NCBI GenBank assembly: GCA_038227435.1
Contig: JBBRPW010000001.1
Coordinates: 9,632 to 73,631 of the forward strand
Direction of reading: 5' to 3'
DNA: 64,000 nucleotides
DNA from: Minisyncoccia bacterium
GTDB taxonomy: Bacteria; Patescibacteriota; Minisyncoccia; Phycocordibacterales; CALRBL01
Positions 14,660 through 47,053 of the stretch are shown here, piece after piece (position 1 is the first letter of the stretch; each line of letters begins with the position of its first letter). The position numbers and the translations under genes are program-made. The notes below the pieces were generated by a model that saw only the letters and a list, made by a program, of their open reading frames with translations, did not search any database and had not been told where the DNA came from.

Positions 14660-16231
14660 TTATTCGACAAAATGTTTATTTCGAATCTTTTTTATTTCTT
14701 CTTGGTTTAATTCATCCATTTTACTCTTCCCTACTAAAGACAAAGCTTTTAATACCTCTATATCTAAATTATTATATTTTTTTACTAGTTCTGATAAGTC
14801 TTTTTTATTATTTAGATGTGGATTTTCAATCACTTCGTTGAAAATAGCTTGAAGAATATAGCCAATTTTGGGTCCTGGGGCTATTTCGAAATCTTTCATT
14901 AAAGTATTTCCGTCAATTTTAAGCATCGATAAGTCAATAGGATCAAGTAGCGCCTCTTCTATCATTGCTTTATATTTCCTTAATCTATAGGGGTTTTCTT
15001 TTGGGCGACCTGTCCCTACCCTATCGCAGATTCTTAGGTTTATAAGGTCCCATATTAGATCTTTTCCAACATTTACGATAATTCTACGTACTGCAGAAAG
15101 TGTAATCGTTTCTGTATCCGAGAAAAACATATGCCACCGCACAAGTTTTATAACCTTGTCAGATGTTTCGTGAGAAACCTTTAAATCTTCCAAAATCCTT
15201 GTTACTAGGCGTGCTCCAACAACTTCGTGCCCATAAAATGTCCAATCATTGTTTTCACGTGAAAATATAGCTGTTTTAGGCTTACCTATGTCATGAAATA
15301 AGGCAGAAAGTCTCACATGTAACATAAATTCTTTATCAGCAGCACACTGAAGACTCCGTAACAGGTGCTCAAATACATCATATGAGTGTGCTTGGTTTTG
15401 CTTAACACCAACAGATTGTTCAATCTCTTTAGAGATATAACTCAAAATACCCAACTTATGAGCCATAAATAGGCCTTGTGAGGGGTTTTTTGACATAATA
15501 ATTTTAAGAAATTCATCTCTAATTCTTTCACGTGAAATTTTTTCAAGTATTTTTGATCTAATCTGGATAGAATCCTGAGTTTCCTGGTTAATCATGAAAC
15601 CGAGCTGGCATGCAAAGCGAATAGCTCTTAAAATTCTTAAACCATCCTCTGCAAATCTTTCGTCAGGATTACCAACGCTTCTAATGACTTTAGCCTTAAT
15701 ATCAGCCATTCCATCGAACAGATCAATAATCTGAGCCGTTTTAAGATCATAAGCTAAGGCGTTAATCGTGAAATCTCTTCGAGACAAGTCTTCGTTAATA
15801 GTATTAGCAAATACTATATTTTCTGGGTGCCTTCCATCTATATAGTTTGTTTCAGATCGATAAGGAGTAATTTGAACAAATTTTGTTGTTTCATCTGAAA
15901 TGTTTTCATGAATAACAGTTACGGTTCCAAATTTCTCTTCAACAAGAGTCTTTGGAAATAAAGAAGCGATCTGAGAGGGAAGAGCATTGGTCGTAATATC
16001 CCAATCTTTAGGAGTTAATCCCAAAAGTAGGTCTCTAACACAGCCACCAACAATAAAAGCCTCGTACCCGGCATTGTACAGCGCAAGGATAGTGTCCTTA
16101 ACAACTTCTGGTATGTTTGAGCCAATATTAATATTAGGGTTGTCCTTTATGCCTGTAGAAGGAATCATGAAGCAAAGTCTAGTATATATTTTGATTATTA
16201 TCCAATCTAGAGTATTATCGGTATCGGACAT
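14660..16231 (-). CDS. cca: CCA-adding enzyme / tRNA nucleotidyltransferase with a C-terminal HD domain. The start is moved to the internal ATG (MSDTDN...) because the longer ORF would overlap tRNA-Arg.
   Basis: IVGGCVRDLLLG...DWDITTN head-domain motif. The HD motif reads LFHDIGK. Confidence 0.85.
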   Translation of the reverse strand: MSDTDNTLDWIIIKIYTRLCFMIPSTGIKDNPNINIGSNIPEVVKDTILALYNAGYEAFIVGGCVRDLLLGLTPKDWDITTNALPSQIASLFPKTLVEEKFGTVTVIHENISDETTKFVQITPYRSETNYIDGRHPENIVFANTINEDLSRRDFTINALAYDLKTAQIIDLFDGMADIKAKVIRSVGNPDERFAEDGLRILRAIRFACQLGFMINQETQDSIQIRSKILEKISRERIRDEFLKIIMSKNPSQGLFMAHKLGILSYISKEIEQSVGVKQNQAHSYDVFEHLLRSLQCAADKEFMLHVRLSALFHDIGKPKTAIFSRENNDWTFYGHEVVGARLVTRILEDLKVSHETSDKVIKLVRWHMFFSDTETITLSAVRRIIVNVGKDLIWDLINLRICDRVGTGRPKENPYRLRKYKAMIEEALLDPIDLSMLKIDGNTLMKDFEIAPGPKIGYILQAIFNEVIENPHLNNKKDLSELVKKYNNLDIEVLKALSLVGKSKMDELNQEEIKKIRNKHFVE

Positions 16232-16251
16232 ATAACAATTAAAAACAATAC

Positions 16252-16326
16252 GCACCCGTGGTGAAATGGATATCACAACAGTCTTCGGAACTGTTTTTGT
16301 AGGTTCGAGTCCTGCCGGGTGCACCA
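16252..16326 (+). tRNA. tRNA-Arg (anticodon TCG), CCA encoded.
   Basis: Manual fold: acceptor GCACCCG/CGGGTGC, D stem GTGA/TCAC, anticodon stem ACAGT/ACTGT with loop CTTCGGA, T arm GTAGG-TTCGAGT-CCTGC, 3' ACCA. Confidence 0.85.
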
Positions 16327-16341
16327 GATAGGGTAGAGTGA

Positions 16342-16412
16342 GCGGGTATGGTTTAGTGGTAGAACACGTCCTTGCCAAGGACGAGTCGAGGGTTCGATTC
16401 CCTCTACCCGCA
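16342..16412 (+). tRNA. tRNA-Gly (anticodon GCC); CCA not encoded.
   Basis: Acceptor GCGGGTA/TACCCGC, anticodon stem CGTCC/GGACG with loop TTGCCAA, T arm AGGGTTCGATTCCCT. Confidence 0.85.
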
Positions 16413-16567
16413 CTAGGAACGAGTATAAAACAAAACGAAGTTTTGTTTTATCGAGTGACGACGTACGGGGAAGACTGGCTCTCCTGAGCCAGGCTTACAA
16501 GCACTAGGAGTTTGTCAAAGACAAACTCCTCAAAATCCCCTAAACTAACGGACCAATATAAGACAAC

Positions 16568-16576
16568 TGTGGATAA
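16568..16576 (-). promoter_or_regulatory. Perfect DnaA-box 9-mer (TGTGGATAA on the + strand).
   Basis: Exact reverse complement of TTATCCACA, lying between tRNA-Gly and the yraN-like gene. Confidence 0.3.
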
Positions 16577-16747
16577 CTACGGGGATATGTGCTTAAAAGA
16601 CATTCTAAATATCCTTATTCTTAGCCAAATGACTTTTATAATCGACATTAAGGAGCACTTTATAAAACATCATTTTTACCCATATATTTATACCTTTTTT
16701 ATAATTTCTTAATTAAAATTTTACGTATAGTATTCCAAAATCGATGA

Positions 16748-17188
16748 ATGAAATTAAAAGACATTGGTAGATATGGGGAAGCTGTCGCTAAATACTATTT
16801 TAAAAATAAGGGATATACATTCCTATCCGCAAACTTTCAAATAAGTGAAGGGGAGATTGATTTAATTTTTAAAAAAGACAATGAAATCGTTGCGATTGAA
16901 GTAAAGGCCTCAGTTATTCCTGGGAATAATGTTTTTAGTTATGAATACAGCCCAATTCAGAAAATAAATAGATTAAAACTTCATAAAATCAAAATTACAT
17001 TGTGTCACTTCATTAAAAAGCATCACCAATATAGATATTTCAACAAAAGGGTAGATTTGATAGGGGTTAGAATTCTTTCACGAGTATCCTCAGAAGATTT
17101 TAAGAATTTGAAAACTATAAGTGAGGCAATTAAGTTAAATCTCTTTAAAAACATCTTTATTACGCATATTCCCAATGTAATTTGGTAA
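16748..17188 (+). CDS. yraN: YraN/UPF0102-family predicted endonuclease.
   Basis: GRYGEAVAKYYFKNKGYTFLSANFQISEGEIDLIF...IVAIEVKA matches the UPF0102 core. Confidence 0.7.
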   Translation: MKLKDIGRYGEAVAKYYFKNKGYTFLSANFQISEGEIDLIFKKDNEIVAIEVKASVIPGNNVFSYEYSPIQKINRLKLHKIKITLCHFIKKHHQYRYFNKRVDLIGVRILSRVSSEDFKNLKTISEAIKLNLFKNIFITHIPNVIW

Positions 17189-17232
17189 AAATTTCATGGC
17201 TTTTTTGAATCATTATGCTATGCTCCTTGTAC

Positions 17233-17305
17233 CGGAGTGTAGTGTAACGGCTAACATTCTTGATTTGGGATCAAGCGACTCAGGGTTCGAATCCCTGCAC
17301 TCCGA
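17233..17305 (+). tRNA. tRNA-Pro (anticodon TGG).
   Basis: Acceptor CGGAGTG/CACTCCG, anticodon stem CTTGA/TCAAG with loop TTTGGGA, T arm CAGGGTTCGAATCCCTG. Confidence 0.85.
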
Positions 17306-17336
17306 CAAGTTTAAGTACTAATAAAGATTCAAAAAT

Positions 17337-17642
17337 ATGGCTTTCATTAAAAATGTGGAAGATTTTAAGTGTGAAAAATGTGGAACCGATATAAAAGGCG
17401 ATGGTTTCACTAACCATTGTCCTAATTGTTTATATAGTAAGCACGTCGACAACGATCCGGGGGATAGGAAAAATACATGTGGTGGCTTAATGAAGCCAAT
17501 TGCCTATATTAAAATGAAAGAGAAGGAAAAAATTACTCATCAATGTTTAGTTTGCGGCGAAGAGAAAAATAATAAAGTTTGCCTAAATGATAGTAGGGAA
17601 GCAATGGTTACTATGATTAAAAATGGAATTGAAGAGAATTAA
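17337..17642 (+). CDS. Small Cys-rich zinc-ribbon protein, RNHCP-domain-like.
   Basis: CEKCG...FTNHCPNCLYSKHVD...CGG...CLVCG; the xNHCP motif resembles the RNHCP family. Confidence 0.5.
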   Translation: MAFIKNVEDFKCEKCGTDIKGDGFTNHCPNCLYSKHVDNDPGDRKNTCGGLMKPIAYIKMKEKEKITHQCLVCGEEKNNKVCLNDSREAMVTMIKNGIEEN

Positions 17643-17709
17643 TTCCAAATAAAGCTCTGGATTGAAATATCTCTAGTATTTGCTACTATCTTCATACAAA
17701 CAAATAAAT

Positions 17710-17780
17710 GCGGGATTGGTTTAGTGGTAGAATGACTGCCTTCCAAGCAGTAGACAAGGGTTCGATTCCCTTATCCCGCA
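17710..17780 (+). tRNA. tRNA-Gly (anticodon TCC).
   Basis: Acceptor GCGGGAT/ATCCCGC, anticodon stem ACTGC/GCAGT with loop CTTCCAA, T arm AGGGTTCGATTCCCT. Confidence 0.85.
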
Positions 17781-17904
17781 CAAGACATGAACAGTTTGAG
17801 ACGGCTCGCTGTCTCAAACTAGTGAATGGCGCAGTGCGGGGCAATGTCCGCACTAGGAGTGAAACTCCTTCTCCTTCTTTCCATATTTTTTAATTTATTA
17901 AATA

Positions 17905-17940
17905 AAAAAACCGCTGAGTTTTTAGGCTCAACGGTTCTTG
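17905..17940. terminator. Bidirectional hairpin CCGCTGAG-TTTTTAG-GCTCAACGG flanked by A7 and a T run. It terminates the M16 gene (minus) and the tRNA side (plus).
   Basis: Inverted repeat with flanking homopolymer tracts. Confidence 0.5.
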
Positions 17941-17953
17941 TTTAGTTCAACAT

Positions 17954-19069
17954 TTAAGGACAAGTCATAAATGTGAACTGACGCTCTGAACTTAATAGGG
18001 AAGCGGCTTCCTCCATTTGCTCAAAGGTAATTTTGTGCAAATCATCCCATACTTCCTGTATGGAAATAATTCGTTGTATAGAAGAAAGATTACTTCCCAC
18101 GTTACCGGCAAGACTACTTCCTGAAAGATCAATCATCATACACATTTGCTTCAGTGACTTTAATTTTCGATCAAACAAATCTCGTCTAGATGGAACAGCC
18201 TCAATACAATTTCGAACCAGTTCGTTAATGTAGGGAGTGGCGCTCGGACTAACCGTTCCAATAATTTCGTACACGTACAAATCTTGATATCCCACGTAGT
18301 CTGTTCCAACACTGTAAGCAAGCCCACGACTTTCGCGAATCTCATCACGTAGAATTTTTTCGAGCACCGAATCAAATACTCTACGTGCCTGAGATGGAAA
18401 GTCATAAGGAAATGCCCACGTTGCTTTGTACTTTGTTTGATCAACCTTGTAGCTAACGTGATCAGAAAGTTTTACTGTCAGTGCATGCTCTTTCGGAATC
18501 GGAAGTTGTTTGAGAGGTTGGGGAATTTTAGTTCTATTACCATTTTTTCCCATTCCGAATGGACTCTTTACTAATTCAGAAATCATTTTATTTGTCTCAA
18601 GTCCTCCGATAACTACGAGACTAATGTTCGCAGGAACATAGTGTTTATCGTAAAATCTCTGTAGATCGACACCAGTTGTCGAAAGAAAACCTTCTGGCCG
18701 CCCAATTGGACGATTATATGTTTGAAGTCGATGTCCTTGAAACAATGCATTTCGAACAGACATATCCCACCCTAAGGCGTCGGGATTAGGGTATCGTCCG
18801 CTAAATTCTTGGAAAATAACCTTACGCTCGCGCTCAATATCTTTTTCAATTTCGCTCTCGAGGAGCATTGAGCCAAAAATTTCCAATGCTTGGCGGAATA
18901 TAGGAAGATTGGTAGGGACTGTGAATCTATACCTCGTAGATAGGTAGTTTGTGACTCCAAATTCAGCCCTACCACCACATGTTTCAAAAAACTCTTTTAC
19001 TTGGTCGAATTCCCAGTTGGGAATGTTCTGGCTGATTATGTGTTCCACGAAATGGGCAAGCCCTGGCAT
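17954..19069 (-). CDS. M16 (insulinase/pitrilysin) family zinc peptidase, HxxEH motif present. The N-terminal 18 codons lie upstream in the same frame beyond an in-frame TAA at 19151-19153 (see finding).
   Basis: GLAHFVEH inverted zinc-binding motif followed by ETCGGRAEFGVTNYLSTRY. Upstream in the same frame reads MYDPYTKFTKRVFPNGL-TAA-VHSVFWDRPWIGVEIVVHSGAREDPLE. Confidence 0.75.
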   Translation of the reverse strand: MPGLAHFVEHIISQNIPNWEFDQVKEFFETCGGRAEFGVTNYLSTRYRFTVPTNLPIFRQALEIFGSMLLESEIEKDIERERKVIFQEFSGRYPNPDALGWDMSVRNALFQGHRLQTYNRPIGRPEGFLSTTGVDLQRFYDKHYVPANISLVVIGGLETNKMISELVKSPFGMGKNGNRTKIPQPLKQLPIPKEHALTVKLSDHVSYKVDQTKYKATWAFPYDFPSQARRVFDSVLEKILRDEIRESRGLAYSVGTDYVGYQDLYVYEIIGTVSPSATPYINELVRNCIEAVPSRRDLFDRKLKSLKQMCMMIDLSGSSLAGNVGSNLSSIQRIISIQEVWDDLHKITFEQMEEAASLLSSERQFTFMTCP

Positions 19070-19296
19070 TTCGAGAGGATCTTCTCGCGCACCACTATGA
19101 ACAACGATTTCTACTCCAATCCAGGGACGATCCCAGAATACGGAATGGACTTAGAGTCCGTTTGGAAAAACACGCTTCGTAAATTTTGTATACGGGTCGT
19201 ACATTTTTTGTCCTTTCTTGTGAATGTGCTTAGTTGTCTGAAATTCTCACAAACAATGACACATTTATTGTATGTTGGCAATTTTAAAACAAAAAA

Positions 19297-19330
19297 GACT
19301 CCACCTTATGGAGTCTTTTTTGTTATTACC
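19297..19330. terminator. Bidirectional terminator AAAAAAGACTCCAccttaTGGAGTCTTTTTTT between the M16 peptidase gene and hup.
   Basis: 8-bp perfect stem flanked by A6 and T7 runs. Confidence 0.6.
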
Positions 19331-19406
19331 AGAGCTACGCTCATCTGTAATTTTACTAGGATTTTAGTGCGTTATTTGCCTAATAAATGCCCTTTACCTA
19401 ACGTTA

Positions 19407-19679
19407 TTATTTAACTGCGTCTTTCAAAGCCTTTGCAGCTCGGAATTTTGGAACTCGCATAGCTGCAACTTGAATTGATTCTCCTGTTCGAGGGTTTCGA
19501 GCTGTTCTTGCTGCTCGCTGTTTAGCTGAGAAGATTCCCAATCCTGCGACTGAAACCTCTTCTCCCTTCTTTAGAGTCGAAACAATTGAATCAACTAGAA
19601 GATCTACTACTTGTTCAGCTTGAACTTTTGTACTTCCTAGTAGGCCGTGAACTGCTTCAACTAAATCTGCTTTATTCAT
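19407..19679 (-). CDS. hup: DNA-binding protein HU.
   Basis: MNKADLVEAV...RNPRTGESIQV...PKFRAAKALKDAV matches the HU/IHF fold. Confidence 0.9.
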   Translation of the reverse strand: MNKADLVEAVHGLLGSTKVQAEQVVDLLVDSIVSTLKKGEEVSVAGLGIFSAKQRAARTARNPRTGESIQVAAMRVPKFRAAKALKDAVK

Positions 19680-33333: not shown

Positions 33334-34557
33334 ATGAAGTTCTCTTTCACCGCGAAACATGCCGACGGAAAAACATTTAAAGATACTCGCGAATACGCAG
33401 ATAAATTTGCACTGTTCCACGATATTAAAAAAGGCGGAGATGTTTTAATTGAATTTAAAGAGAGCGGCAATGATGATGCCTGGTGGAACCACGTTGATGT
33501 TATTTTTTCAAAAATTTTCGGCTCTGTTAAAATGCAGGAGAAAATTGGTTTTGCTCGTAATTTAAGCAACATGCTAGATGCGGGATTAGCCCTGTCTCGC
33601 TCACTTAACGTGATGGAAAGACAGACTAAAAATAAGAAGATAAAAGCTATTTATTCCCATTTAAACGAGCTAATTAGCCAAGGAAAAACATTTCATGAGG
33701 CTCTCGCAGAATATCCACGTGTATTTAATCAATTATTTGTGTCGATGGTACGTGCTGGAGAAGAATCAGGAACGTTAGCTGCATCACTTAAAGAGGTGAG
33801 TGAGCAGATGGAAAAAACCTACATGCTTAAGAAAAAAATTAAGGGAGCAATGATGTACCCCGGAGTTATTTTTACTGTAATGATTATTATTGGAATTTTG
33901 ATGATGATTTTAGTGGTGCCTCGTCTTACAGCAACTTTTGAAGATTTAAAAGTAGAACTCCCAACCTCAACCAAGGTAATTATTTTTATGAGCCATGTAT
34001 GTAAAGATTATTGGCCGCAAGGAATTGGCGTCCTAATTATTCTAGGATCACTTTTATATGCAGCAGCTCGAACACCTGCAGGAAAAAAAACATTTGATTT
34101 TATTTTTCTCCATCTTCCAATTGTTGGTGAACTTGTTAAACAAACAAATACGGCTCAAACGGCCCGAACTCTCTCGTCATTGCTTCATTCTGGGGTAGAT
34201 GTGATGCTTGCTTCCCAAATTACAGGTGATGTTGTTGGAAATTCATTTTATAAAAAAGTTTTGTATGACATGAAAGAAAAAATTGAGAAAGGGGCGCCAA
34301 TGTCTGAATCGTTTTTAGAAAATGAACATTTATACCCCGTATTCGTGGGTGAAATGGTTTCGGTAGGAGAGGAAACAGGCCGATTGGCAATTATGCTTCA
34401 AGGGGTGGCTGTGTTTTATGAAGGTGAAGTAGAACAAAAAACAAAAGACATGTCGACACTTATTGAGCCTCTTTTAATGGTAGTTATTGGAGGCGCTGTA
34501 GGATTCTTTGCGGTAGCCATGATTACTCCTACATATTCAGTATTAAATAATATTTAG
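33334..34557 (+). CDS. pilC: Type IV pilus inner-membrane platform protein PilC (GspF family).
   Basis: Two T2SSF repeats and three TM segments. Confidence 0.9.
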   Translation: MKFSFTAKHADGKTFKDTREYADKFALFHDIKKGGDVLIEFKESGNDDAWWNHVDVIFSKIFGSVKMQEKIGFARNLSNMLDAGLALSRSLNVMERQTKNKKIKAIYSHLNELISQGKTFHEALAEYPRVFNQLFVSMVRAGEESGTLAASLKEVSEQMEKTYMLKKKIKGAMMYPGVIFTVMIIIGILMMILVVPRLTATFEDLKVELPTSTKVIIFMSHVCKDYWPQGIGVLIILGSLLYAAARTPAGKKTFDFIFLHLPIVGELVKQTNTAQTARTLSSLLHSGVDVMLASQITGDVVGNSFYKKVLYDMKEKIEKGAPMSESFLENEHLYPVFVGEMVSVGEETGRLAIMLQGVAVFYEGEVEQKTKDMSTLIEPLLMVVIGGAVGFFAVAMITPTYSVLNNI

Positions 34558-34563
34558 TTTTCA

Positions 34564-36387
34564 ATGGTATCTTTTAAAAATAATAAATTTAAAGGTGCGC
34601 ACTCTGGTTTTACCCTAATCGAAATTTTAGTGGTAACAGCTATTTTTTTGGTAATCACTCTAGCTATTAGCTATACCTATAACAGAACTATCATGGTTTT
34701 GTCGCTCAATAAGATGAAGATAGATGCGATTGATTTAGCAAATGAACAAATTGAAATTATTCACAATCTTCCTTATGCAGACGTTGGAATTGTTGGAGGA
34801 ATTCCAAATGGAAAAATTGATAATGAAATTATTACTCAACGTGACGGGTCGGCCTATCTACTTAAAACAACGATTCGAAATACAGATGACCCAGCAGACG
34901 GAACCGTTGGAGGAACTCCGAACGATTTGTCTCCTGCCGACTATAAATTAGTAGAAGTTGAAGTGAGTTGTGATACAGCAAAAATAGTTGCTCAATCAAC
35001 TACTACTTCGAGGTGTAGTCAATTTCACCCTGTTGTTCTAACAACAATTATAGCTCCAAAGGCACTCGAAACTGCGTCAACAAACGGAGCTCTTTTCGTA
35101 AAAGTTTTTGATGCAAATGGAATAGCGGTGTCCGGAGCAGATGTGCATATTGTTAATCCATATGGAACTAGCACAATTACGATTGACGATGTAACAGATG
35201 TAAACGGACTTCTTCAAATTATTGATGCACCACCAGGAACTAATGCTTATACAATCAGTGTTACGAAAAGTGGATTTTCAACCGATCAAACCTCTGCAAC
35301 AAGTATGAGTCCGTATAAGCCGCCAGCAACAGTTATCACTCAGCAAGTAACTCAAATAAGTTTTGCCATCGATAGACTTTCAACAGTTACGTATAATACG
35401 GTGAATGCTCAATGTTTACCTCAAGGAAATGTGCCGCTTAAAATTACTAGCTCAAAGTTAATTGCTGCAGGAAAACCAAAATCAACATCAACAATTACTA
35501 CAAATGCTGGGGGAGTGTATACAGCAAACAACATTGAATGGGACACATATGCAATTACACCTGGTAGCTCTACATATGACATTTTAGGAATTAATCCAAT
35601 TTCACCCATTAATGTCCTTCCTGGAAGTACTCAATCGGTAACCGTTATTACTGCGCTTCAAAACCCTAATACAGTGCTTATGGTAGTTAAAGATGCAGGA
35701 ACTGGATTACCTTTATCCGATGCGGTTGTTGATATTACTGGGCCATCAGGAAGCTTTAGTTTACAAACAGGACGAGGGTTTGTACGACAAACAGATTGGT
35801 CGGGAGGTGGTGGGCAAACAGATTGGACATCACAAAATCAATTCTATTCGTCAGCGGGAATCAATTATTCAGGAACTCCTGGCCAAATTAAATTACAAAC
35901 GAGCCTTACATCTGGAAATTTAATTTCTTCGGTAATCGACATGAGTACTTCAACCGACTTCAAACAGATTTTATGGAATCCAACAAATCAGCCAGTTCAA
36001 ACAGGAACTTCGAGTGTTCAAATGCAAATTGCTACTTCGGATACTAATAATGGAACCACAACTTGGAACTATGTAGGACCCGATGGCACTGCGGGAACTT
36101 ATTTTATGGTTGGAACTAACGATATTAATGCTGCACAAAGTGGAAAACAATATTTCAGATATAAGGTATTTCTATCGAGCAATTCATCATCATATACTCC
36201 AAATGTTGCCGATATTTCCGTTACATTTACTTCGGCTTGTGTTCCACCGGGGCAGGTGTTATTTGATGGGCTTACTGCGGGTACTTATTCGTATACAATT
36301 ACACGAAGCGGTTACACCACACAATCAGGAAGTATGACCGTCTCAAGTGGATGGCAAACAATAAGTGTGCCTGTGGCTAGTTTGTAA
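34564..36387 (+). CDS. Large pilin-like protein with a class III signal peptide (prepilin cleavage/methylation motif).
   Basis: N-terminus KGAHSGFTLIEILVVTAIFLV is the canonical G|FTLIE prepilin motif. The large C-terminal part is beta-rich. Confidence 0.7.
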   Translation: MVSFKNNKFKGAHSGFTLIEILVVTAIFLVITLAISYTYNRTIMVLSLNKMKIDAIDLANEQIEIIHNLPYADVGIVGGIPNGKIDNEIITQRDGSAYLLKTTIRNTDDPADGTVGGTPNDLSPADYKLVEVEVSCDTAKIVAQSTTTSRCSQFHPVVLTTIIAPKALETASTNGALFVKVFDANGIAVSGADVHIVNPYGTSTITIDDVTDVNGLLQIIDAPPGTNAYTISVTKSGFSTDQTSATSMSPYKPPATVITQQVTQISFAIDRLSTVTYNTVNAQCLPQGNVPLKITSSKLIAAGKPKSTSTITTNAGGVYTANNIEWDTYAITPGSSTYDILGINPISPINVLPGSTQSVTVITALQNPNTVLMVVKDAGTGLPLSDAVVDITGPSGSFSLQTGRGFVRQTDWSGGGGQTDWTSQNQFYSSAGINYSGTPGQIKLQTSLTSGNLISSVIDMSTSTDFKQILWNPTNQPVQTGTSSVQMQIATSDTNNGTTTWNYVGPDGTAGTYFMVGTNDINAAQSGKQYFRYKVFLSSNSSSYTPNVADISVTFTSACVPPGQVLFDGLTAGTYSYTITRSGYTTQSGSMTVSSGWQTISVPVASL

Positions 36388-36391
36388 CTAT

Positions 36392-37066
36392 ATGAATCTT
36401 TTTAACTTGTTTACAATAAAAAAATATTCTTCAAAACGAAAAAAAGCAGCACAGGCTGGTTTTACCTTAGTTGAATTACTTATAGTACTCTTCATCATTT
36501 CAATTTTGAGTGTAGTAATTGGTGAATTTCAAAGTAAGGTATTTACATATAATCGAATTTTAACTACAGGAAACAATGCACGTTTCGAAGGAACGAAAGT
36601 AGTAAAACAAATTGCGGCCGAAATGAGGGCAATGGGACCATCAAGTGCAGGAGGGTATCCGATTGAAGCGGCAGGAACCAGTTCAATCATTTTTTATAAC
36701 GATGTAGACGATGATGGAATTAAAGAAAGAATTAGATACTACATTTCAGGAAAAACTCTATACAAGGCTTCAATGAAGCCCATCATCGATCAGAACGGTC
36801 AAACACTTACCACTGAAACGATTACAACGGTAATTACAAACGTAATTAACACTTCAGCCGACCCTATATTTAGTTATTTCGATACGAATTATAATGGAGC
36901 TGAATCATCTGCCACAAGTACAGCAGCACTTCCTTTGCCTATAAACATTTCAAAAATTCGGTTAATTCAAATTAGAGTATTAACTGACAACAGTAATAAT
37001 GAACCGCTTGCTCCACTTGAACTTCGCACCCAAACATCAATTCGAAATTTAAAAGACAATTTATAG
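36392..37066 (+). CDS. Type IV pilin / pseudopilin. The start is moved to the internal ATG MNLFN...
   Basis: AQAGFTLVELLIVLFIISILSVVIG prepilin N-terminal domain. Confidence 0.7.
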   Translation: MNLFNLFTIKKYSSKRKKAAQAGFTLVELLIVLFIISILSVVIGEFQSKVFTYNRILTTGNNARFEGTKVVKQIAAEMRAMGPSSAGGYPIEAAGTSSIIFYNDVDDDGIKERIRYYISGKTLYKASMKPIIDQNGQTLTTETITTVITNVINTSADPIFSYFDTNYNGAESSATSTAALPLPINISKIRLIQIRVLTDNSNNEPLAPLELRTQTSIRNLKDNL

Positions 37067-40926: not shown

Positions 40927-41676
40927 ATGTTTGAAAAATATCTTCAAGAATTAGGATTATCCGATAAGGAGGCAAGTGTATATATTTCACTTCTCCAGGT
41001 AGATAACGACTCAGTACTCGATTTGTCTAAAAAAACAAAAATTAATAGAACCACTATCTACCCAGTCCTTGAAAGCTTGGCCAAAAAAGGTCTTATTAGC
41101 GAAGCACAAGTTGATAAAAAGATTAGATATCACGCCGAACCACCCGAACGATTAGAAACATATGTTGAGCGGCAAAAAACAATGCTTCAAGAGCATTCAA
41201 ATCGATTAAAAGATGTAATTCCTCAGTTAAAAAGTATTCAGAGGGAAACTGGGGAAAAACCAATGGTTAAGTATTTTGAAGGTAGACAGGGTGCGATCAG
41301 TTCTCTTGAAGAGTTTTATAATTCAATCGGAAAAGGTGGCACTGCATATTTAATTTATCCAAAAGATGCAATAAAAAATATCTTCAATGAAAAAGAAATT
41401 GAAAAATATCGATCAATACGCCTTAAAAGGGAAATAAAGACAAAAGTAATAAGTACTTCGTCAAAAAACGACATAATTTCTGATTCAACAGGTAATCGAA
41501 TACAAATTGACGGAGAAAAGTATCCCATCACTTCGGATATTGCTATTTACGAAGATAAAGTAAGGGTTACTATTTTGGGGAAGTCTTTAGCAGCATTTTC
41601 AATAAAGAGTCAGGATCTTGCTGATACACTTCGTAGTTTATTTGATTTGGTATTTGATCTATCAAAAAATAAATAA
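40927..41676 (+). CDS. TrmB-family HTH transcriptional regulator.
   Basis: N-terminal LGLSDKEASVYISLL...INRTTIYPVLESLAKKGLI winged-helix region typical of TrmB. Confidence 0.6.
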   Translation: MFEKYLQELGLSDKEASVYISLLQVDNDSVLDLSKKTKINRTTIYPVLESLAKKGLISEAQVDKKIRYHAEPPERLETYVERQKTMLQEHSNRLKDVIPQLKSIQRETGEKPMVKYFEGRQGAISSLEEFYNSIGKGGTAYLIYPKDAIKNIFNEKEIEKYRSIRLKREIKTKVISTSSKNDIISDSTGNRIQIDGEKYPITSDIAIYEDKVRVTILGKSLAAFSIKSQDLADTLRSLFDLVFDLSKNK

Positions 41677-41696: not shown

Positions 41697-41738
41697 TACC
41701 CCGATCGCACAACGTGCTGCGATCGGGGTATTTGGTTT
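41697..41738 (+). terminator. Rho-independent terminator ACCCCGATCGCAcaacgtgcTGCGATCGGGGT + TTTGGTTT.
   Basis: 12-bp perfect GC-rich stem followed by a T-rich tail. Confidence 0.6.
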
Positions 41739-42326
41739 AGACCCCGTGGTCTTTTACTCCGAGAACGATAAGGTATTGCCCTTCGCGTTCTCGAACGATT
41801 TCATTGGCCTACCCCTCGGGGTAGAAAATAAGGTGTGTTTACTAGTCAGACATACTATTTTTCCTTCGGTCGGGGTTCTCTCTAACAAGGTTTGGATTTT
41901 GAGGACAGCTTTTAGCTACTAGTCCCAGCCAACAGCCGATTCGGGCGCTGTTGGCTGGGACTTTCACTTTCGGCTAGTCGCCCATATTACCTCCTTGTTA
42001 AGGTTCGGGAATCGTTCATAAGCAAGAGCGCTAATGAATTTCCAAATAAAATTTAGCATAATAAAATTGGTCTGTCAACATGTTTTAACTAAATTGAGTA
42101 TATTTGATCAATTTTATATAAAATAAGGCTATGAATATAGCTTCAATAGTGTTTTTACTTGTTATTGTCGGTTTTTGTGTTTTGACACCTGAAAAATACT
42201 ACAAAACAAATATTTTTTAATGCAATTAATGTAGTTTTATGTCATATCTAATTTACATATATTGTATATAATATCCTTATTTATCAATACTATAATGGAA
42301 TATTAAATTTAATCTGTCATAAACAC

Positions 42327-42354
42327 TTGACAAAAATATAAATATCCGTATTAT
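42327..42354 (+). promoter_or_regulatory. Sigma70-like promoter TTGACA-16 nt-TATTAT driving the island's + strand transcription.
   Basis: Consensus -35 and near-consensus -10 with 16-nt spacing, about 200 nt upstream of the first island ORF. Confidence 0.4.
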
Positions 42355-42478
42355 CTTTCTCAGTTAGAACTTTTCACCTCAACCCCCAAAGAACAATGCG
42401 TTACTACGTGCTCCCCGACGGGACCGTGGTGATCAACCCCTCTGACGCCTACTAAGGCGTTACGGGATGATCCCACTT

Positions 42479-42530
42479 CTGCGGCTTAGGCACGCGGGGG
42501 AATAATGCACCCTGGCAACAGAATCGCATC
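42479..42530 (+). repeat. Repeat family R1, copy a (CTGCGGCTTAGGCACGCGGGG...CCTGGCAACAGAAT), in the 5' leader of island ORF-A.
   Basis: A 21/21 identical block plus a 14-nt block shared with copy b at 43777-43828. Confidence 0.55.
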
Positions 42531-42561
42531 CACTAAAACATCACCCTAATTTTTTACAACT

Positions 42562-42843
42562 ATGAAAAAGATCGTGATCGGAATGATGGTCGTTCTCGCT
42601 CTACTCTTGTCGTTTGTTGCAGGTGTCTTCTACGGCACCAACGCAACTATCGCCAAGATGGAATTGCTGGAAACCCCCAGAGGCCGCATTCTTTACTACT
42701 TCATTCCGAATACATCTGCTTCGACAGAAATTTATTCGCTTGATAGTGGAGAAGATGCTGATCTCTACGAGGATTCAACACAAATTCCTGACGAAGACGT
42801 GACTGAGAGGAAAGACTCTCTGAAGGACGACACTAACCTTTAA
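42562..42843 (+). CDS. Island ORF-A: small membrane-anchored protein with an acidic C-terminal tail.
   Basis: 93-aa ORF. TM helix IVIGMMVVLALLLSFVAGVFYG. The last 14 codons and the stop lie inside repeat R2a. Confidence 0.4.
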   Translation: MKKIVIGMMVVLALLLSFVAGVFYGTNATIAKMELLETPRGRILYYFIPNTSASTEIYSLDSGEDADLYEDSTQIPDEDVTERKDSLKDDTNL

Positions 42844-42897
42844 TTCAAAAGTGTTTATTTTTGCGACCGTTTTAAATGGTTGGTTGGCGTGCAGCGC
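42801..42897 (+). repeat. Repeat family R2, copy a (97 nt), immediately upstream of HHR1.
   Basis: 94 of 97 positions identical to copy b at 45769-45866. Contains hairpin GAGAG-gaaaga-CTCTC. Confidence 0.7.
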
Positions 42898-42935
42898 TAA
42901 GAGAAAACTTTAAATCCTAACTATAAAAAGTTAGA

Positions 42936-42987
42936 TCTGTCTCGAAATGTAATTTCGACTGATGAGCTCTAGAGAGCGAAACAGAAA
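42936..42987 (+). ncRNA. Hammerhead ribozyme, type III topology (HHR1).
   Basis: TCTGTC|TCGAAATgtaATTTCGA-CTGATGA-GCTCtagaGAGC-GAAA-CAGA. All core nucleotides present (C3-A9, G12-A14, A15.1-U16.1, GUC cleavage triplet). Three stems fold as required. Confidence 0.75.
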
Positions 42988-43436
42988 GTACTTTAAAACC
43001 AAGAAAAATAATAAAAGTTAAATTCGTCTGCACTTGAGAGTGTTTTTAAAAATATTCTCACGTGCAGGCGAAAGTAGCGCCAAAGCATGTGATCGGTAGT
43101 ACACATTTAAATCTTGAGTGAGTGTCTCGGATTTAAGTGGAGTTGTACTACGTATTAATTCATCACCAAAAAAATGATTAGTGGGATGTTCTGATTGTTC
43201 TCGTACGCCTCGCGAGAGACCAACAGTCAAAATGTCACATCATTTGAGTAGGGACAAGCAGTTCGTTGCTGTGCACCGAACTTTGATGAATTATGGCTGT
43301 GAACGATCTGAGGTGAGTACCGCAAGGTAACTCAGTTTGATCTAGTAATAGTTATGGGGAAAGCGCATAAGGCTTGGTCGCCAAGTGTGTATTACCTGCT
43401 ACAAAATTTCTAAACCTCAACCAAAAAAGAATTACT

Positions 43437-43772
43437 ATGGCACATTACAGTACTTTTATTTTTCAGTTGCCAGGATGTCCCGAGATTTATATGAGTACTC
43501 GGTACAACATTATTCAGGACTTTGATTGCATTCGAAATAAGTTTGGAAAGGGGTTGATTAAGTTCAAACCTTTCTACAAGCCTGATCGAGTGCAATTTAC
43601 TCCTCCGAGTAATGGAGAAAAGCATCCTTGGGTATTGCTGACTAAATATCAGCGTAGGAAGATTCAAACCTTCCTCAATGTGGTCTACCGAAAGGGAAAC
43701 CACAGGGTACCTCGGAGATGGCGCAAGTTCGTAAAGAACGACGGCGTCTTTCCAAAGGAGTGTCTCGACTGA
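43437..43772 (+). CDS. Island ORF-B: small basic protein (R/K-rich C-terminus).
   Basis: 111-aa ORF from ATGGCACATTAC; no homologue recognised. Confidence 0.35.
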   Translation: MAHYSTFIFQLPGCPEIYMSTRYNIIQDFDCIRNKFGKGLIKFKPFYKPDRVQFTPPSNGEKHPWVLLTKYQRRKIQTFLNVVYRKGNHRVPRRWRKFVKNDGVFPKECLD

Positions 43773-43776
43773 GCAA

Positions 43777-43828
43777 CTGCGGCTTAGGCACGCGGGGTAC
43801 ACATACTACCTGGCAACAGAATTGTATG
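43777..43828 (+). repeat. Repeat family R1, copy b. It follows the ORF-B stop and precedes HHR2.
   Basis: Shares CTGCGGCTTAGGCACGCGGGG and CCTGGCAACAGAAT blocks with R1a. Confidence 0.55.
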
Positions 43829-43857
43829 AAACTGACTAGTAATTATTTACTAGTCAC

Positions 43858-43909
43858 TCTGTCTCGAAATGTAATTTCGACTGATGAGCTCTAGAGAGCG
43901 AAACAGAAA
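43858..43909 (+). ncRNA. Hammerhead ribozyme, type III (HHR2), 52/52 identical to HHR1.
   Basis: Same sequence as HHR1, preceded by the 9-bp palindrome GACTAGTAA-ttat-TTACTAGTC. Confidence 0.75.
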
Positions 43910-44304
43910 TACATTAAAAATAAAATAATTTCTTTACACCTCATCCGGCGTTTATTTGCGGCACGAAAATAACCACGCAAACAAAAAATGTGGAAACCCG
44001 CTAGACGCTGGTTGAGGTGTAATGAACAAAAAATATAGGTTGCTAGTTAACCTGATCCGAGGAGCTCTGGTTTTCCATAAGGAAAACTAAAACTTTCGGG
44101 CTTTAGTGGGGCAAGCAACGTAACGCCGGATGCGTACGTGTGAGGCCAAAAGCACAAAAACTACTTGTTTGCCCAGCTATCGGGGAATAAGCGTCGTTCG
44201 TGGTACGGCGTTATGAGCATAAGTATCAAAATCTCCGAAGCCATTCGCCCTTAAGGGTGAAATGGTTCTAGTGAGGAATTTTGAGAACGTTCTCTAACAA
44301 CCAC
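43910..44304 (+). ncRNA. Roughly 395-nt ORF-free, highly structured spacer between HHR2 and HHR4. Candidate large structured RNA of unknown class.
   Basis: Long-range inverted repeats TTACACCTCA/TGAGGTGTAA and CATCCGGCGTT/AACGCCGGATG. Local hairpins GTTTTCC-ataa-GGAAAAC and CCATTCGCCC-ttaa-GGGTGAAATGG. No ORF over 40 codons on the + strand. Confidence 0.35.
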
Positions 44305-44357
44305 TTTGTTTATCGATGTGTTTCGATACTGAAGAGCTCAAAAGAGCGAAACAGAAG
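44305..44357 (+). ncRNA. Hammerhead-like ribozyme variant (HHR4): CTGAAGA core (position 7 = A), GUU cleavage triplet, short stem III.
   Basis: TTTGTT|TATCGAtgtgttTCGATA-CTGAAGA-GCTCaaaaGAGC-GAAA-CAGAAG. Position 7 is tolerant and U17 is permitted but weaker. Confidence 0.5.
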
Positions 44358-44393
44358 ATCTTTAAATTTCAGCAACTTCAACCCCCTAAAAAA

Positions 44394-44699
44394 ATGCAAA
44401 ACCCATATGGTTCGGAGAAGCAGTTGGAAACCACCGAACAGCAGATCGACCGCCGTGTCGCGCTCAGTGTCCTCGAAGTGAGCTACCATTTTTGGGGCGC
44501 ACTTCGGGGTGGTGGCGAACGGGCCGCTGCGAACCTTTTGAACAGTTTGAAAGGTGCAGCACCACGCGGCTACTACTTCACTGTCTCGGCAGATAGGGAG
44601 TGGCGTCCGCGTGCAAACAAAGACGGAACGTTCGAGTTCCGCCGCCTGTTTCAGCCCCGAACCAACACTGTCGCCATCATCGGATTGGCAAGACGATAG
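44394..44699 (+). CDS. Island ORF-C: hypothetical protein.
   Basis: 101-aa ORF starting at ATGCAAAACCCA, directly downstream of HHR4. Confidence 0.35.
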   Translation: MQNPYGSEKQLETTEQQIDRRVALSVLEVSYHFWGALRGGGERAAANLLNSLKGAAPRGYYFTVSADREWRPRANKDGTFEFRRLFQPRTNTVAIIGLARR

Positions 44700-44719
44700 T
44701 GCCGGAAGGGTTGAAACAC

Positions 44720-44830
44720 ACGTTAAGAGTCACCGTAAAAAACTCTGGTCTGATCCACTAACAACGATCACTCGTTTATCGTATGCGAGCTTCAAAAAAC
44801 GTTCGGGTCCGCCCGTGATAGCGGCGTCGG
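44720..44830 (+). repeat. Repeat family R3, copy a (about 110 nt), followed by hairpin GGGGAAtttatTTCCCC.
   Basis: About 93% identical to copy b at 46431-46540. Some differences are compatible with conserved pairing (AACGA/TCGTT versus AATGA/TTGTT). Confidence 0.65.
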
Positions 44831-44916
44831 TAGGGGAATTTATTTCCCCACTTTATTGAGCCTGTCACATTCGGTGATTGGTTCATCAAGTTCGTTCTTT
44901 TCAAAAAAATAAAAAT

Positions 44917-45330
44917 ATGAAACTTAACGTCAAGGCTATCCGTAGTTTTGTGCTTAGTCAGGTAGTGGACAAGGAAGAGTCAGAAGCACTCATCTTTTAT
45001 TTGGCTGGCATCAATGCCGAATTCTATCTCGTAGATCCTCACACCTGCGGAGAAGAAGCAGGAGAGATTGGCTTCATGGGTTTCAACTTCACCGACAAGG
45101 TGAATGATGCAATGAATGCTGGTCTTTGGGCTGTGATTTACGACGATGGGCGCGATTATGCTTACCATAAGTACTTCCTTTTCGAGGAAGACGCTAAAAG
45201 TTTTGCAAATCGGGTTGGTGGAGGCTTATTGAAGTACACCAACACTGCAAATCGGCTGAAAGTTATTGCCCACTTTAGAAAGTTGGGCTTAATCGAAGAA
45301 GTTCCTGAAGAAGAAGGAATTCTCGAATAA
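44917..45330 (+). CDS. Island ORF-D: hypothetical acidic protein.
   Basis: 137-aa ORF from ATGAAACTTAAC. Confidence 0.4.
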   Translation: MKLNVKAIRSFVLSQVVDKEESEALIFYLAGINAEFYLVDPHTCGEEAGEIGFMGFNFTDKVNDAMNAGLWAVIYDDGRDYAYHKYFLFEEDAKSFANRVGGGLLKYTNTANRLKVIAHFRKLGLIEEVPEEEGILE

Positions 45331-45463
45331 CTTTAAGTCAATTCATATACGTTCTGCATAACGTAAAAAATGTAGCTGTTTTGCTCAATATGCGTGCAAG
45401 AAATTGCATGTCGACATATTGGCTTCTTCAGTGAAAAAAGAAGGTAAGAAAGGAGGATCAACA

Positions 45464-45760
45464 ATGATCATCGACCTTTCTCTTCGTAATGAGCGCCTGT
45501 ACAAGGGTTGCGAAATTACGGAGGTGGCAGGCCGGCTGAACTTGGTTACTCCAGTTGCTGATGCAGTTAATATCGTTGGCCGCAACGCCAATGGGTTGAT
45601 TGCAGAAGTTGCTGCGAGTGATCGGAGCGAAGTCGAGCTTACGGGTCCGATGGCGGTTTGGTCTTACTTGATCGTTTTCCACGCTGTGGTTCACGCCTTT
45701 TCGAAGGTGTACTACAACGATGGGAAAGGTCGGGTACTGATCGCCGCCCACGGCGCCTGA
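45464..45760 (+). CDS. Island ORF-E: hypothetical protein preceded by a strong Shine-Dalgarno.
   Basis: AAAGGAGGatcaacaATG gives a canonical SD at optimal spacing. 98-aa ORF (MIIDLSLRNERLYKG...). Native genes in this window generally lack an SD. Confidence 0.5.
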   Translation: MIIDLSLRNERLYKGCEITEVAGRLNLVTPVADAVNIVGRNANGLIAEVAASDRSEVELTGPMAVWSYLIVFHAVVHAFSKVYYNDGKGRVLIAAHGA

Positions 45761-45768
45761 TGCCATCT

Positions 45769-45866
45769 GACTGAGAGGAAAGACTCTCTGAAGGACGACA
45801 CTAACCTTTAATTCAGAAGTGTCTATTTTTGCGACCGTTTTAAATGGTTGGTTGGCGTGCATCGCT
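45769..45866 (+). repeat. Repeat family R2, copy b, non-coding here, immediately upstream of HHR3.
   Basis: Near-identical to R2a. Confidence 0.7.
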
Positions 45867-45890
45867 GACGGATAGATGTTCTATCCGTCA

Positions 45891-45942
45891 TCTGTCACAG
45901 GGTATTACCTTGTCTGATGAGTTCAAAAGAACGAAACAGAAG
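45891..45942 (+). ncRNA. Hammerhead ribozyme, type III (HHR3), a sequence variant of HHR1/2.
   Basis: TCTGTC|ACAGGGTattACCTTGT-CTGATGA-GTTCaaaaGAAC-GAAA-CAGAAG. Full conserved core. Preceded by hairpin GACGGATAG-atgtt-CTATCCGTC. Confidence 0.7.
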
Positions 45943-45970
45943 ATCTTTCAAAACTCCACAAATAATTTTT

Positions 45971-46204
45971 ATGAATAATCATTCGAAAGAATTGGTATGT
46001 GTTCGAGTGATTAATGTATGCGCATCCATTAAAGGCTCTTTTGGATTAGGTCACTTTATAAAAGTCGATCTGTCTGGAGTCAGTGATTGGTATATATACT
46101 GCTCAAAAACTAAACCAATTGTCGGACAAGAAATTTCCATGTTTCTTACTATGTACGGCAAATGGACATGTCTCGATGACAGAGACAATGTCGAATCATT
46201 TTAG
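45971..46204 (+). CDS. Island ORF-F: small Cys-containing hypothetical protein directly downstream of HHR3.
   Basis: 77-aa ORF from ATGAATAATCAT. Confidence 0.3.
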   Translation: MNNHSKELVCVRVINVCASIKGSFGLGHFIKVDLSGVSDWYIYCSKTKPIVGQEISMFLTMYGKWTCLDDRDNVESF

Positions 46205-46430
46205 TCGAATTAAAACCCTATGATCAACATCATCAAATCTACTCGCTATAAGGTGAGTGGCTTCATTCGTAACTGCGTTAAAAACCCTCGCACGAGCTGG
46301 AAGCTGCGGAAGCAATTGGCTTCTCGCAGCATGCGTCGCCTCGATCGAAAGGTGATCGCTGCAACGGATGTTGAGGAGCATTCGTCGTGTGTCGTATACA
46401 ATAACTTCCTGGGCTATCCGTAGCAAGGAA

Positions 46431-46540
46431 ACGTTAAGAGTCAACGTAAAAAACTCTGGTCTGATCCACCAACAATGATCACTTGTTTATCGTATGCGAG
46501 CAACAAAAAACGTTCGGGTCCGCCCGTAATAGCGGCGTGG
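46431..46540 (+). repeat. Repeat family R3, copy b, ending at the island's terminal terminator.
   Basis: See R3a. Confidence 0.65.
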
Positions 46541-46542
46541 TT

Positions 46543-46570
46543 AAGAGGAACATCAGTTCCTCTTTTTTTA
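46543..46570 (+). terminator. Rho-independent terminator AAGAGGAAcatcagTTCCTCTT + T8.
   Basis: 8-bp stem followed by a T run. Confidence 0.6.
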
Positions 46571-46615
46571 TTTCTAAATCAAATTAAGTTAAAATTTATA
46601 AACCTACTTATTAAT

Positions 46616-47053
46616 TTATTTATCGAGCTCTGAAATTATTTTTTGAGCAATATCTTCTTTTTCTCCATCTTTATAAATAATATGTTCACCATATCTCATA
46701 CTCACTCCTTTATAACGAGGGATTAAATGTGCGTGTATATGTAATATTTCCTGGCCTCCATATGAGCGATTGTTAATGAGTAGATTTACTCCATCAAGTT
46801 TAAGAGCATTCTCTAAAACGTTTGCCACCCTTTTAACTCCTTTCATCATTGTTCCAAAAAGTTCTGTGTCGATCTGAAATATGTCGTCAGCATGTGTTTT
46901 TGGAATAATAATTGTATGTCCTAAGGCAAGAGGATTAATATCGAGGAATACAAAGACATCTGCGTCTTCATAAAGCTTTGTTGTGTTAACTTCTCCTGTA
47001 ATCATTTTGCAAAAGATGCAATCTTTATGGGTTAATTCGTTATTCATGGCCAT
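46616..47053 (-). CDS. HIT-family (histidine triad) nucleotide hydrolase.
   Basis: HIHAHLIP histidine triad motif. Confidence 0.85.
   Translation of the reverse strand: MAMNNELTHKDCIFCKMITGEVNTTKLYEDADVFVFLDINPLALGHTIIIPKTHADDIFQIDTELFGTMMKGVKRVANVLENALKLDGVNLLINNRSYGGQEILHIHAHLIPRYKGVSMRYGEHIIYKDGEKEDIAQKIISELDK

Follow-up and report, generated by a model that had tools for sequence, protein, structure and literature searches.

M16B metallopeptidases are the closest known systems to the protein described here. TTHA1264/TTHA1265 of Thermus thermophilus, the M16B protein of Sphingomonas sp. A1, BH2405 of Bacillus halodurans and the beta subunit of the mitochondrial processing peptidase belong to this group. 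The protein encoded in our window (the whole 64-kb stretch of DNA that was analysed) has in common with them a length of ~415 aa, two homologous alpha/beta domains, an HxxEH motif in the first helix and the M16 and M16_C domains. In contrast to the known members, it shares only 14–20% sequence identity with the solved M16B structures, it falls in a subfamily that is specific to Paceibacteria, strongly conserved in length (416 aa) and without a studied member, and the copy in the window bears a premature stop codon.

In-frame stop codons are known from several other settings. Programmed recoding in bacteria acts on UGA or UAG codons that are conserved among relatives and depends on a dedicated tRNA and/or an RNA element, as in UGA-selenocysteine with its SECIS element, UAG-pyrrolysine and the leaky UGA of phage Q-beta A1. 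The window gene resembles these cases in having an in-frame stop within gapless, same-frame homology. It differs in that the codon is UAA and unique to one genome, that no RNA element was found, and that no dedicated tRNA is present among the four tRNAs of the window. In the CPR lineages Gracilibacteria and Absconditabacteria, a stop codon has been reassigned, UGA to Gly (translation table 25). The host belongs to the same superphylum, Patescibacteria/CPR; unlike the table 25 lineages, however, its genome terminates genes with TAA, TAG and TGA, and the Paceibacteria homologues are annotated under the standard bacterial code. Bacterial pseudogenes with a single nonsense codon, including the 'pseudo-pseudogenes' of Salmonella, likewise combine one in-frame stop with an otherwise intact gene and retained expression signals (Feng et al. 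2022, PMC9122581). Like them, the window gene could conceivably be read through in traces, although read-through in Salmonella occurs mainly at UAG with an adjacent C (PMC9122581), whereas the window gene has UAA followed by G.

Here we describe what is probably a recent loss-of-function nonsense mutation, GAA to TAA at Glu-18, in a conserved stand-alone M16B zinc-peptidase gene of Paceibacteria (Patescibacteria/CPR). As such it is an ordinary single-nucleotide nonsense mutation, and nothing points to a new decoding mechanism.

The interrupted peptidase gene and its product

The features of the locus are collected in Table 1. On the minus strand, the frame opens with ATG (19204-19202), continues through MYDPYTKFTKRVFPNGL to TAA (19153-19151), resumes with VHSVFWDRPWIGVEIVVHSGAREDPLEMPGLAHFVEH and ends at the terminal TAA (17956-17954). 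Re-reading the window reproduced exactly the in-frame TAA that the initial annotation had reported, in position and in sequence. The alteration is at 19153, where the coding strand has T and the plus strand A. Apart from the TAA at codon 18, the gene has no further stop and no frameshift. A frameshift or hopping over the stop was rejected, as homology resumes in the same frame directly after the TAA without a gap; because of this, the protein could be restored only by an amino acid inserted at the stop. The mechanical list of open reading frames gives 17954..19069, 371 aa, with an ATG start at Met46.

Table 1. Features of the peptidase locus (positions within the window)
Feature	Position	Strand	Remarks
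M16B (pitrilysin/insulinase family) peptidase gene	17954..19204	-	416 codons + terminal TAA, internal stop at codon 18; from translation, Pfam, homologues and AlphaFold2 model
Premature TAA, codon 18	19151..19153	-	replaces a conserved Glu codon; GAA in relatives
17-codon N-terminal remnant, MYDPYTKFTKRVFPNGL	19154..19204	-	gapless alignment to homologue residues 1-17
Shine-Dalgarno-like AAAGGA	19211..19216	-	6 nt 5' of the native ATG; putative, by resemblance to the consensus
ATG of Met46	19067..19069	-	first canonical in-frame start past the TAA; opens the 371-aa ORF of gene callers (P0001)
HFVEH, the HxxEH zinc-binding/catalytic motif of family M16	19040..19054	-	codons 51-55, intact
Intrinsic-terminator-like hairpin + T-run	17906..17939	-	15 nt past the stop of the gene; 13-pair stem (hairpin scan)
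Hairpin + T-run after the upstream HU gene	19286..19322	-	read directly: AAAAAAGACTCC-ATAAGGT-GGAGTCTTTTTTGTTTT

The window has about 35% GC and a compact gene layout, and the upstream neighbours of the peptidase gene encode HU, RNase Y and ClpP. Because a hairpin with a T-run ends the HU gene and a terminator-like hairpin follows the peptidase gene, the peptidase gene appears from the sequence to be transcribed on its own. The HU-side hairpin is absent from the list of the hairpin scan, perhaps because A/T runs can lengthen its stem. Two open reading frames that lie opposite to or overlap the gene, 19001-19414 (+) and 19111-19281 (-), were considered as possible real genes and rejected; neither has a Pfam match even at E = 1.

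Pfam analysis of the read-through translation revealed Peptidase_M16 (PF00675; E 7e-13, 49.2 bits against a cut-off of 22.3) and Peptidase_M16_C (PF05193; E 1e-12, 48.7 bits against a cut-off of 23), and these profiles together with the homologues bear out the assignment to M16 that had been made from the letters of the sequence. A search of 5.8 billion proteins gave 188 homologues, and the named ones belong to Paceibacteria/Parcubacteria (Patescibacteria, CPR). Of the 120 homologues listed, nearly all are exactly 416 aa long, and the aligned ones begin at the same Met (MYDPY). Their N-terminus reads MYDPY..F.K..L.NGL-E-VHSVFWDRPW, so the resemblance ahead of the stop is no accident, which bears out the earlier view that the frame upstream of the TAA is an M16 N-terminus with the stop placed after NGL at a conserved position. 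In the 38-sequence alignment, H51, E54 and H55 of HFVEH are invariant. The acidic block ERERKVIFQEF is present ~70-78 residues past HxxEH, with E124, E126, R127 and E133 nearly invariant; this block (ExxxxxxE) presumably supplies the third zinc ligand, the choice of Glu being taken from knowledge of the family.

A profile built from the homologues matches solved M16 proteins, namely PqqL, Bacillus halodurans 3hdi and the beta subunit of the mitochondrial processing peptidase. The AlphaFold2 model of the full-length peptidase has a pLDDT of 94.9 and a pTM of 0.91. Foldseek aligned this model to the M16B structures 7v4y, 5hxk, 3ami and 3hdi with E about 1e-26 and TM 0.8-0.84, and the model also superposes on 1hr6 with TM about 0.8. 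Thus, HxxEH, the acidic block, both Pfam profiles and the two-domain alpha/beta fold of a clamshell half are all found, and what the gene lacks is an uninterrupted frame. The gene is M16B by descent, but the TAA-bearing allele is not expected to yield the full-length enzyme.

Origin and age of the stop at codon 18

Most of the 37 aligned homologues have Glu at position 18, and the rest have Asp, Lys, Thr or Asn. The neighbouring residues are also conserved: Leu17 is nearly invariant and position 19 is mostly Val in the 38-sequence alignment. The comparison with orthologues that had been proposed was extended to DNA, which was read at at least two close Paceibacteria loci (by a scan of genome contigs), at five metagenome loci and by three exact-protein look-ups. 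In the nearest relatives (65-73% identity), codon 18 is GAA in eight distinct genes and GAG in two. None of the relatives has a stop there, as a sense codon was found in 37/37 aligned homologues and in 13/13 related genes read at the DNA level. The codons around the site are GGA CTT GAA GTC CAC TCC GTA in relatives (consensus GGA CTY GAA GTC CAY TCC GTA) and GGA CTC TAA GTC CAT TCC GTA in the window. Read against these codons, the stop is accounted for by a single change, one G-to-T transversion on the coding strand, GAA to TAA.

Short homologues on long contigs were also examined, and the one suspicious case (P0063, 395 aa, on a 245-kb contig) was considered as a second gene with a stop and rejected. 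At its locus (L002 2938-4188, JGI Ga0172380_10000054), the DNA is open from an upstream ATG, which is preceded by a GAGGAG motif, and codon 18 is GAA. An internal Met had been chosen by the gene caller, and the true length is 416 aa.

The rest of the gene is in good condition. Of the columns that are at least 90% conserved, 97/101 are kept, and the four deviations (L13F, E163Q, V395I and I416M, in alignment columns) are all conservative. Intact homologues that have diverged to a comparable degree deviate to a similar extent; P0050 and P0059, for example, have four deviations each. Identity to the homologues is 76% over residues 1-45 and 67% over residues 46-416, and the intact homologues show the same pattern among themselves, with 86% and 77%, respectively. 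There is no relaxation upstream of Met46, and therefore the stop is young relative to measurable divergence, although this test of recency is weak, the nearest relative being only about 72% identical. An artefact, or a stop that is decoded, would equally leave the remainder of the gene intact.

These observations favour the recent nonsense mutation that the initial annotation had listed among its explanations: a single G-to-T change, in a gene otherwise intact, with no decay before Met46. There is one disabling change, it is a single substitution away from the ancestral codon, and the gene is intact in relatives, as in a young pseudogene. Thus, the locus is most likely a young pseudogene or a null allele of the sampled population. 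The sequences show the stop and its position, the ancestral codon, the integrity of the remaining gene, TAA as the main terminator and agreement of a second assembly; from these we infer that the cells themselves, and not just the reads, carry the allele, that it arose recently and that it yields little functional protein. With ordinary termination at codon 18, ribosomes starting at the native ATG (19204) would stop after 17 residues and would release only a 17-residue peptide. Full-length protein would be made at most in traces, by near-cognate misreading of UAA; otherwise the product would be an N-terminally truncated, probably misfolded protein from Met46. The gene would be too young for further damage to have accumulated.

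No second M16 gene able to compensate was found within the 64-kb window, where a search of all six-frame segments with the family HMM matched the peptidase gene only. The interrupted gene suggests the loss, in one sampled population of a CPR bacterium with a small genome, of a peptidase that Paceibacteria otherwise conserve strongly. Provided that the allele is real, it adds a small data point on gene loss still under way in CPR lineages. For annotation, the 371-aa protein P0001 is the truncated product of a disrupted gene; the gene should be flagged as a pseudogene or an interrupted CDS, and P0001 should not serve as a family member with a short N-terminus.

Other explanations of the stop

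An error of sequencing or assembly had also been put forward. In its present form, this explanation holds that the cells carry GAA and that the T arose through read errors or belongs to a sub-population whose allele both assemblers followed. A single base is altered, and G-to-T changes are a familiar library artefact, which can arise from oxidative damage. The flawless remainder of the gene is what an artefact predicts. The Logan contig SRR19962015_5563425 is 100% identical to the window over 4316 bp and has the same TAA; an assembler slip is ruled out because this separate assembly gives the same base, although the NCBI assembly and the Logan assembly of SRR19962015 probably rest on the same reads. 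Agreement of the two pipelines thus weakens the idea of an error, and the probable sharing of reads leaves some probability to a recurrent read error or to the majority allele of a mixed population. The 371-aa product is recorded from both of these assemblies, on a 121-kb contig in that of NCBI, and the cluster of P0001 has a single member. No other protein more than 73% identical to the peptidase was found in the 5.8-billion-protein collection, which holds the Logan gene calls of SRR19962015, so no intact allele, full or fragmentary, has been assembled anywhere in the collection; this argues against an artefact or minor variant. When the 371-aa ORF and the HU protein next to it were looked up as exact proteins, only the SRR19962015 Logan contig was returned. 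The organism was thus found in one sample only, which is without an independent biological replicate, and there is no same-species genome to confirm the TAA allele or to supply an intact one. Spot-checked other genes of the window are free of interruption, which also speaks against a poor assembly. The sole long same-frame neighbours across one stop, 33334-34557 and 34564-36387, were considered as a possible interrupted gene, and thus as a sign of poor assembly or of another code, and were rejected: they proved to be separate genes, one for a T2SS-F protein and one for a pilin-like protein that has an N-terminal methylation motif of its own. Taken together, an artefact or minor variant is the main rival of the nonsense mutation, unlikely but with a chance that is still appreciable.

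Functional read-through would mean that UAA-18 is decoded usefully, either through a near-cognate tRNA for Gln, Lys, Glu or Tyr or through a suppressor encoded elsewhere, and that full-length peptidase is made. We regard this as very unlikely, and the programmed read-through suggested at the outset is likewise unlikely. It agrees with a gene that is intact save for the stop and with the lack of relaxation in codons 1-45. The +4 base is G, not U, the strongest terminator context (in the window, TAAT ends 17 ORFs and TAAG 4). Low-level translation across in-frame stops has been reported for Salmonella pseudogenes, but there it chiefly concerned UAG next to a C (PMC9122581). Among the bacterial stop codons, UGA is the leakiest, followed by UAG, and UAA, which both RF1 and RF2 recognise, is read through least (PMC5289835); the codon in question is thus the least leaky of the stops. 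The absence of a stop at codon 18 from every homologue seen also argues against recoding. Folding of the 91 nt that surround and follow the stop is no more stable than that of shuffled sequence (z = -0.39), giving no sign of a stimulatory RNA structure. The four tRNAs in the 64-kb window are Arg-TCG, Gly-GCC, Pro-TGG and Gly-TCC, and none of them is a suppressor; an ochre suppressor would misread about 70% of the stop codons of the genome. The site therefore lacks what marks a recoding site, namely a stop conserved among relatives and a stimulatory RNA element or a leaky context (it is UAA-G). That UAA-18 is read often enough to matter to the cell, with tRNA-Gln, tRNA-Lys or tRNA-Glu acting as near-cognates on a reduced CPR ribosome, for example, is a shade less probable still. 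If it were true, an ochre codon would stand in front of a conserved peptidase that stays functional or is tuned down, a natural case of tolerated UAA suppression in bacteria.

Re-initiation at Met46 would give a shortened but working peptidase of 371 aa, as gene callers annotate it. The initial annotation had raised this for M(19069), and it is possible in principle: the ATG is the first canonical in-frame start, HxxEH (51-55) lies downstream of it, and databases contain exactly the 371-aa product. The ATG, however, lies 81 nt past the stop, and direct reading of the sequence found no Shine-Dalgarno-like motif at a suitable distance before it. Judged by the AlphaFold2 model, the Met46 product would be without the two core beta-strands 20-23 and 28-35 of the N-terminal domain sheet, and it would also lack the conserved GxRED loop that precedes the active-site helix; from the model, it would be expected to fold poorly. 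Residues 1-45 are among the most conserved of the family, and no homologue on a complete contig naturally begins at this Met. A working protein from Met46 is thus highly improbable.

The weakest alternative, that TAA is a sense codon in this organism, has only the precedent of UGA in other CPR lineages on its side; the initial annotation had already judged it unlikely from the use of TAA and TGA as stops, and it is effectively refuted: of the 55 non-overlapping long ORFs of the window, 39 end in TAA, 11 in TAG and 5 in TGA, gene lengths are normal under table 11, the peptidase gene is the sole TAA-interrupted gene noticed, and relatives have GAA or GAG at the site.

Other features of the window

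Just downstream of the peptidase gene and on the opposite strand, 16252-17781 (+) holds the genes of the four tRNAs, Arg-TCG, Gly-GCC, Pro-TGG and Gly-TCC, interleaved with two small genes, UPF0102/NERD-like (16748-17188) and RNHCP-domain (17337-17642). An ORF of the CCA-adding/poly(A) polymerase family, 14660-16378 (-), has 572 aa with a TTG start, and its 5' end overlaps the tRNA-Arg and tRNA-Gly genes. Because its first Pfam domain begins at residue 107, the true start of this ORF is probably internal.

A gene set resembling type IV pilus/type II secretion systems occupies 33334-37066 (+). It contains the T2SS-F gene at 33334-34557, and N-terminal methylation (pilin) motifs were found in 34564-36387 and 36365-37066. 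The first two of these genes are in the same frame and are parted by TAG and two codons. A larger cluster at 28-39 kb probably includes this set.

Four type III hammerhead-ribozyme motifs lie on the plus strand within 3 kb, at 42934-42987, 43856-43909, about 44308-44356 and 45889-45942. Three of them score 40-42 bits against Rfam Hammerhead_3 (RF00008), with E about 1e-6, and were missed by the default scan because these scores are below the gathering score of 48.5. The fourth (about 44308-44356) has a permitted CUGAAGA core variant and a GUU cleavage triplet. Between the copies, compensatory differences maintain stems I and II, UCGAAAU/AUUUCGA against ACAGGGU/ACCUUGU and GCUC/GAGC against GUUC/GAAC. 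In the literature library searched, no paper treats hammerhead ribozymes and the candidate phyla radiation together. The IMG/VR collection has 17 viral contigs with cores that share the stem II of those in the window.

The motifs fall in a region of 41.7-46.6 kb (41700-46600) that is without convincing ORFs or Pfam matches and has a GC of 0.46, compared with about 0.35. It is flanked by a TrmB-like regulator gene (40927-41676) and a HIT-family gene (46616-47053, minus strand). Long direct repeats are present at 42800-42898/45768-45866 (97%), 44720-44832/46431-46543 (92%) and 42479-42529/43777-43827 (82%). One possibility is that this region is a mobile or RNA-based element that the hammerheads process, and the hammerhead cluster is probably more interesting than the stop in the peptidase gene.
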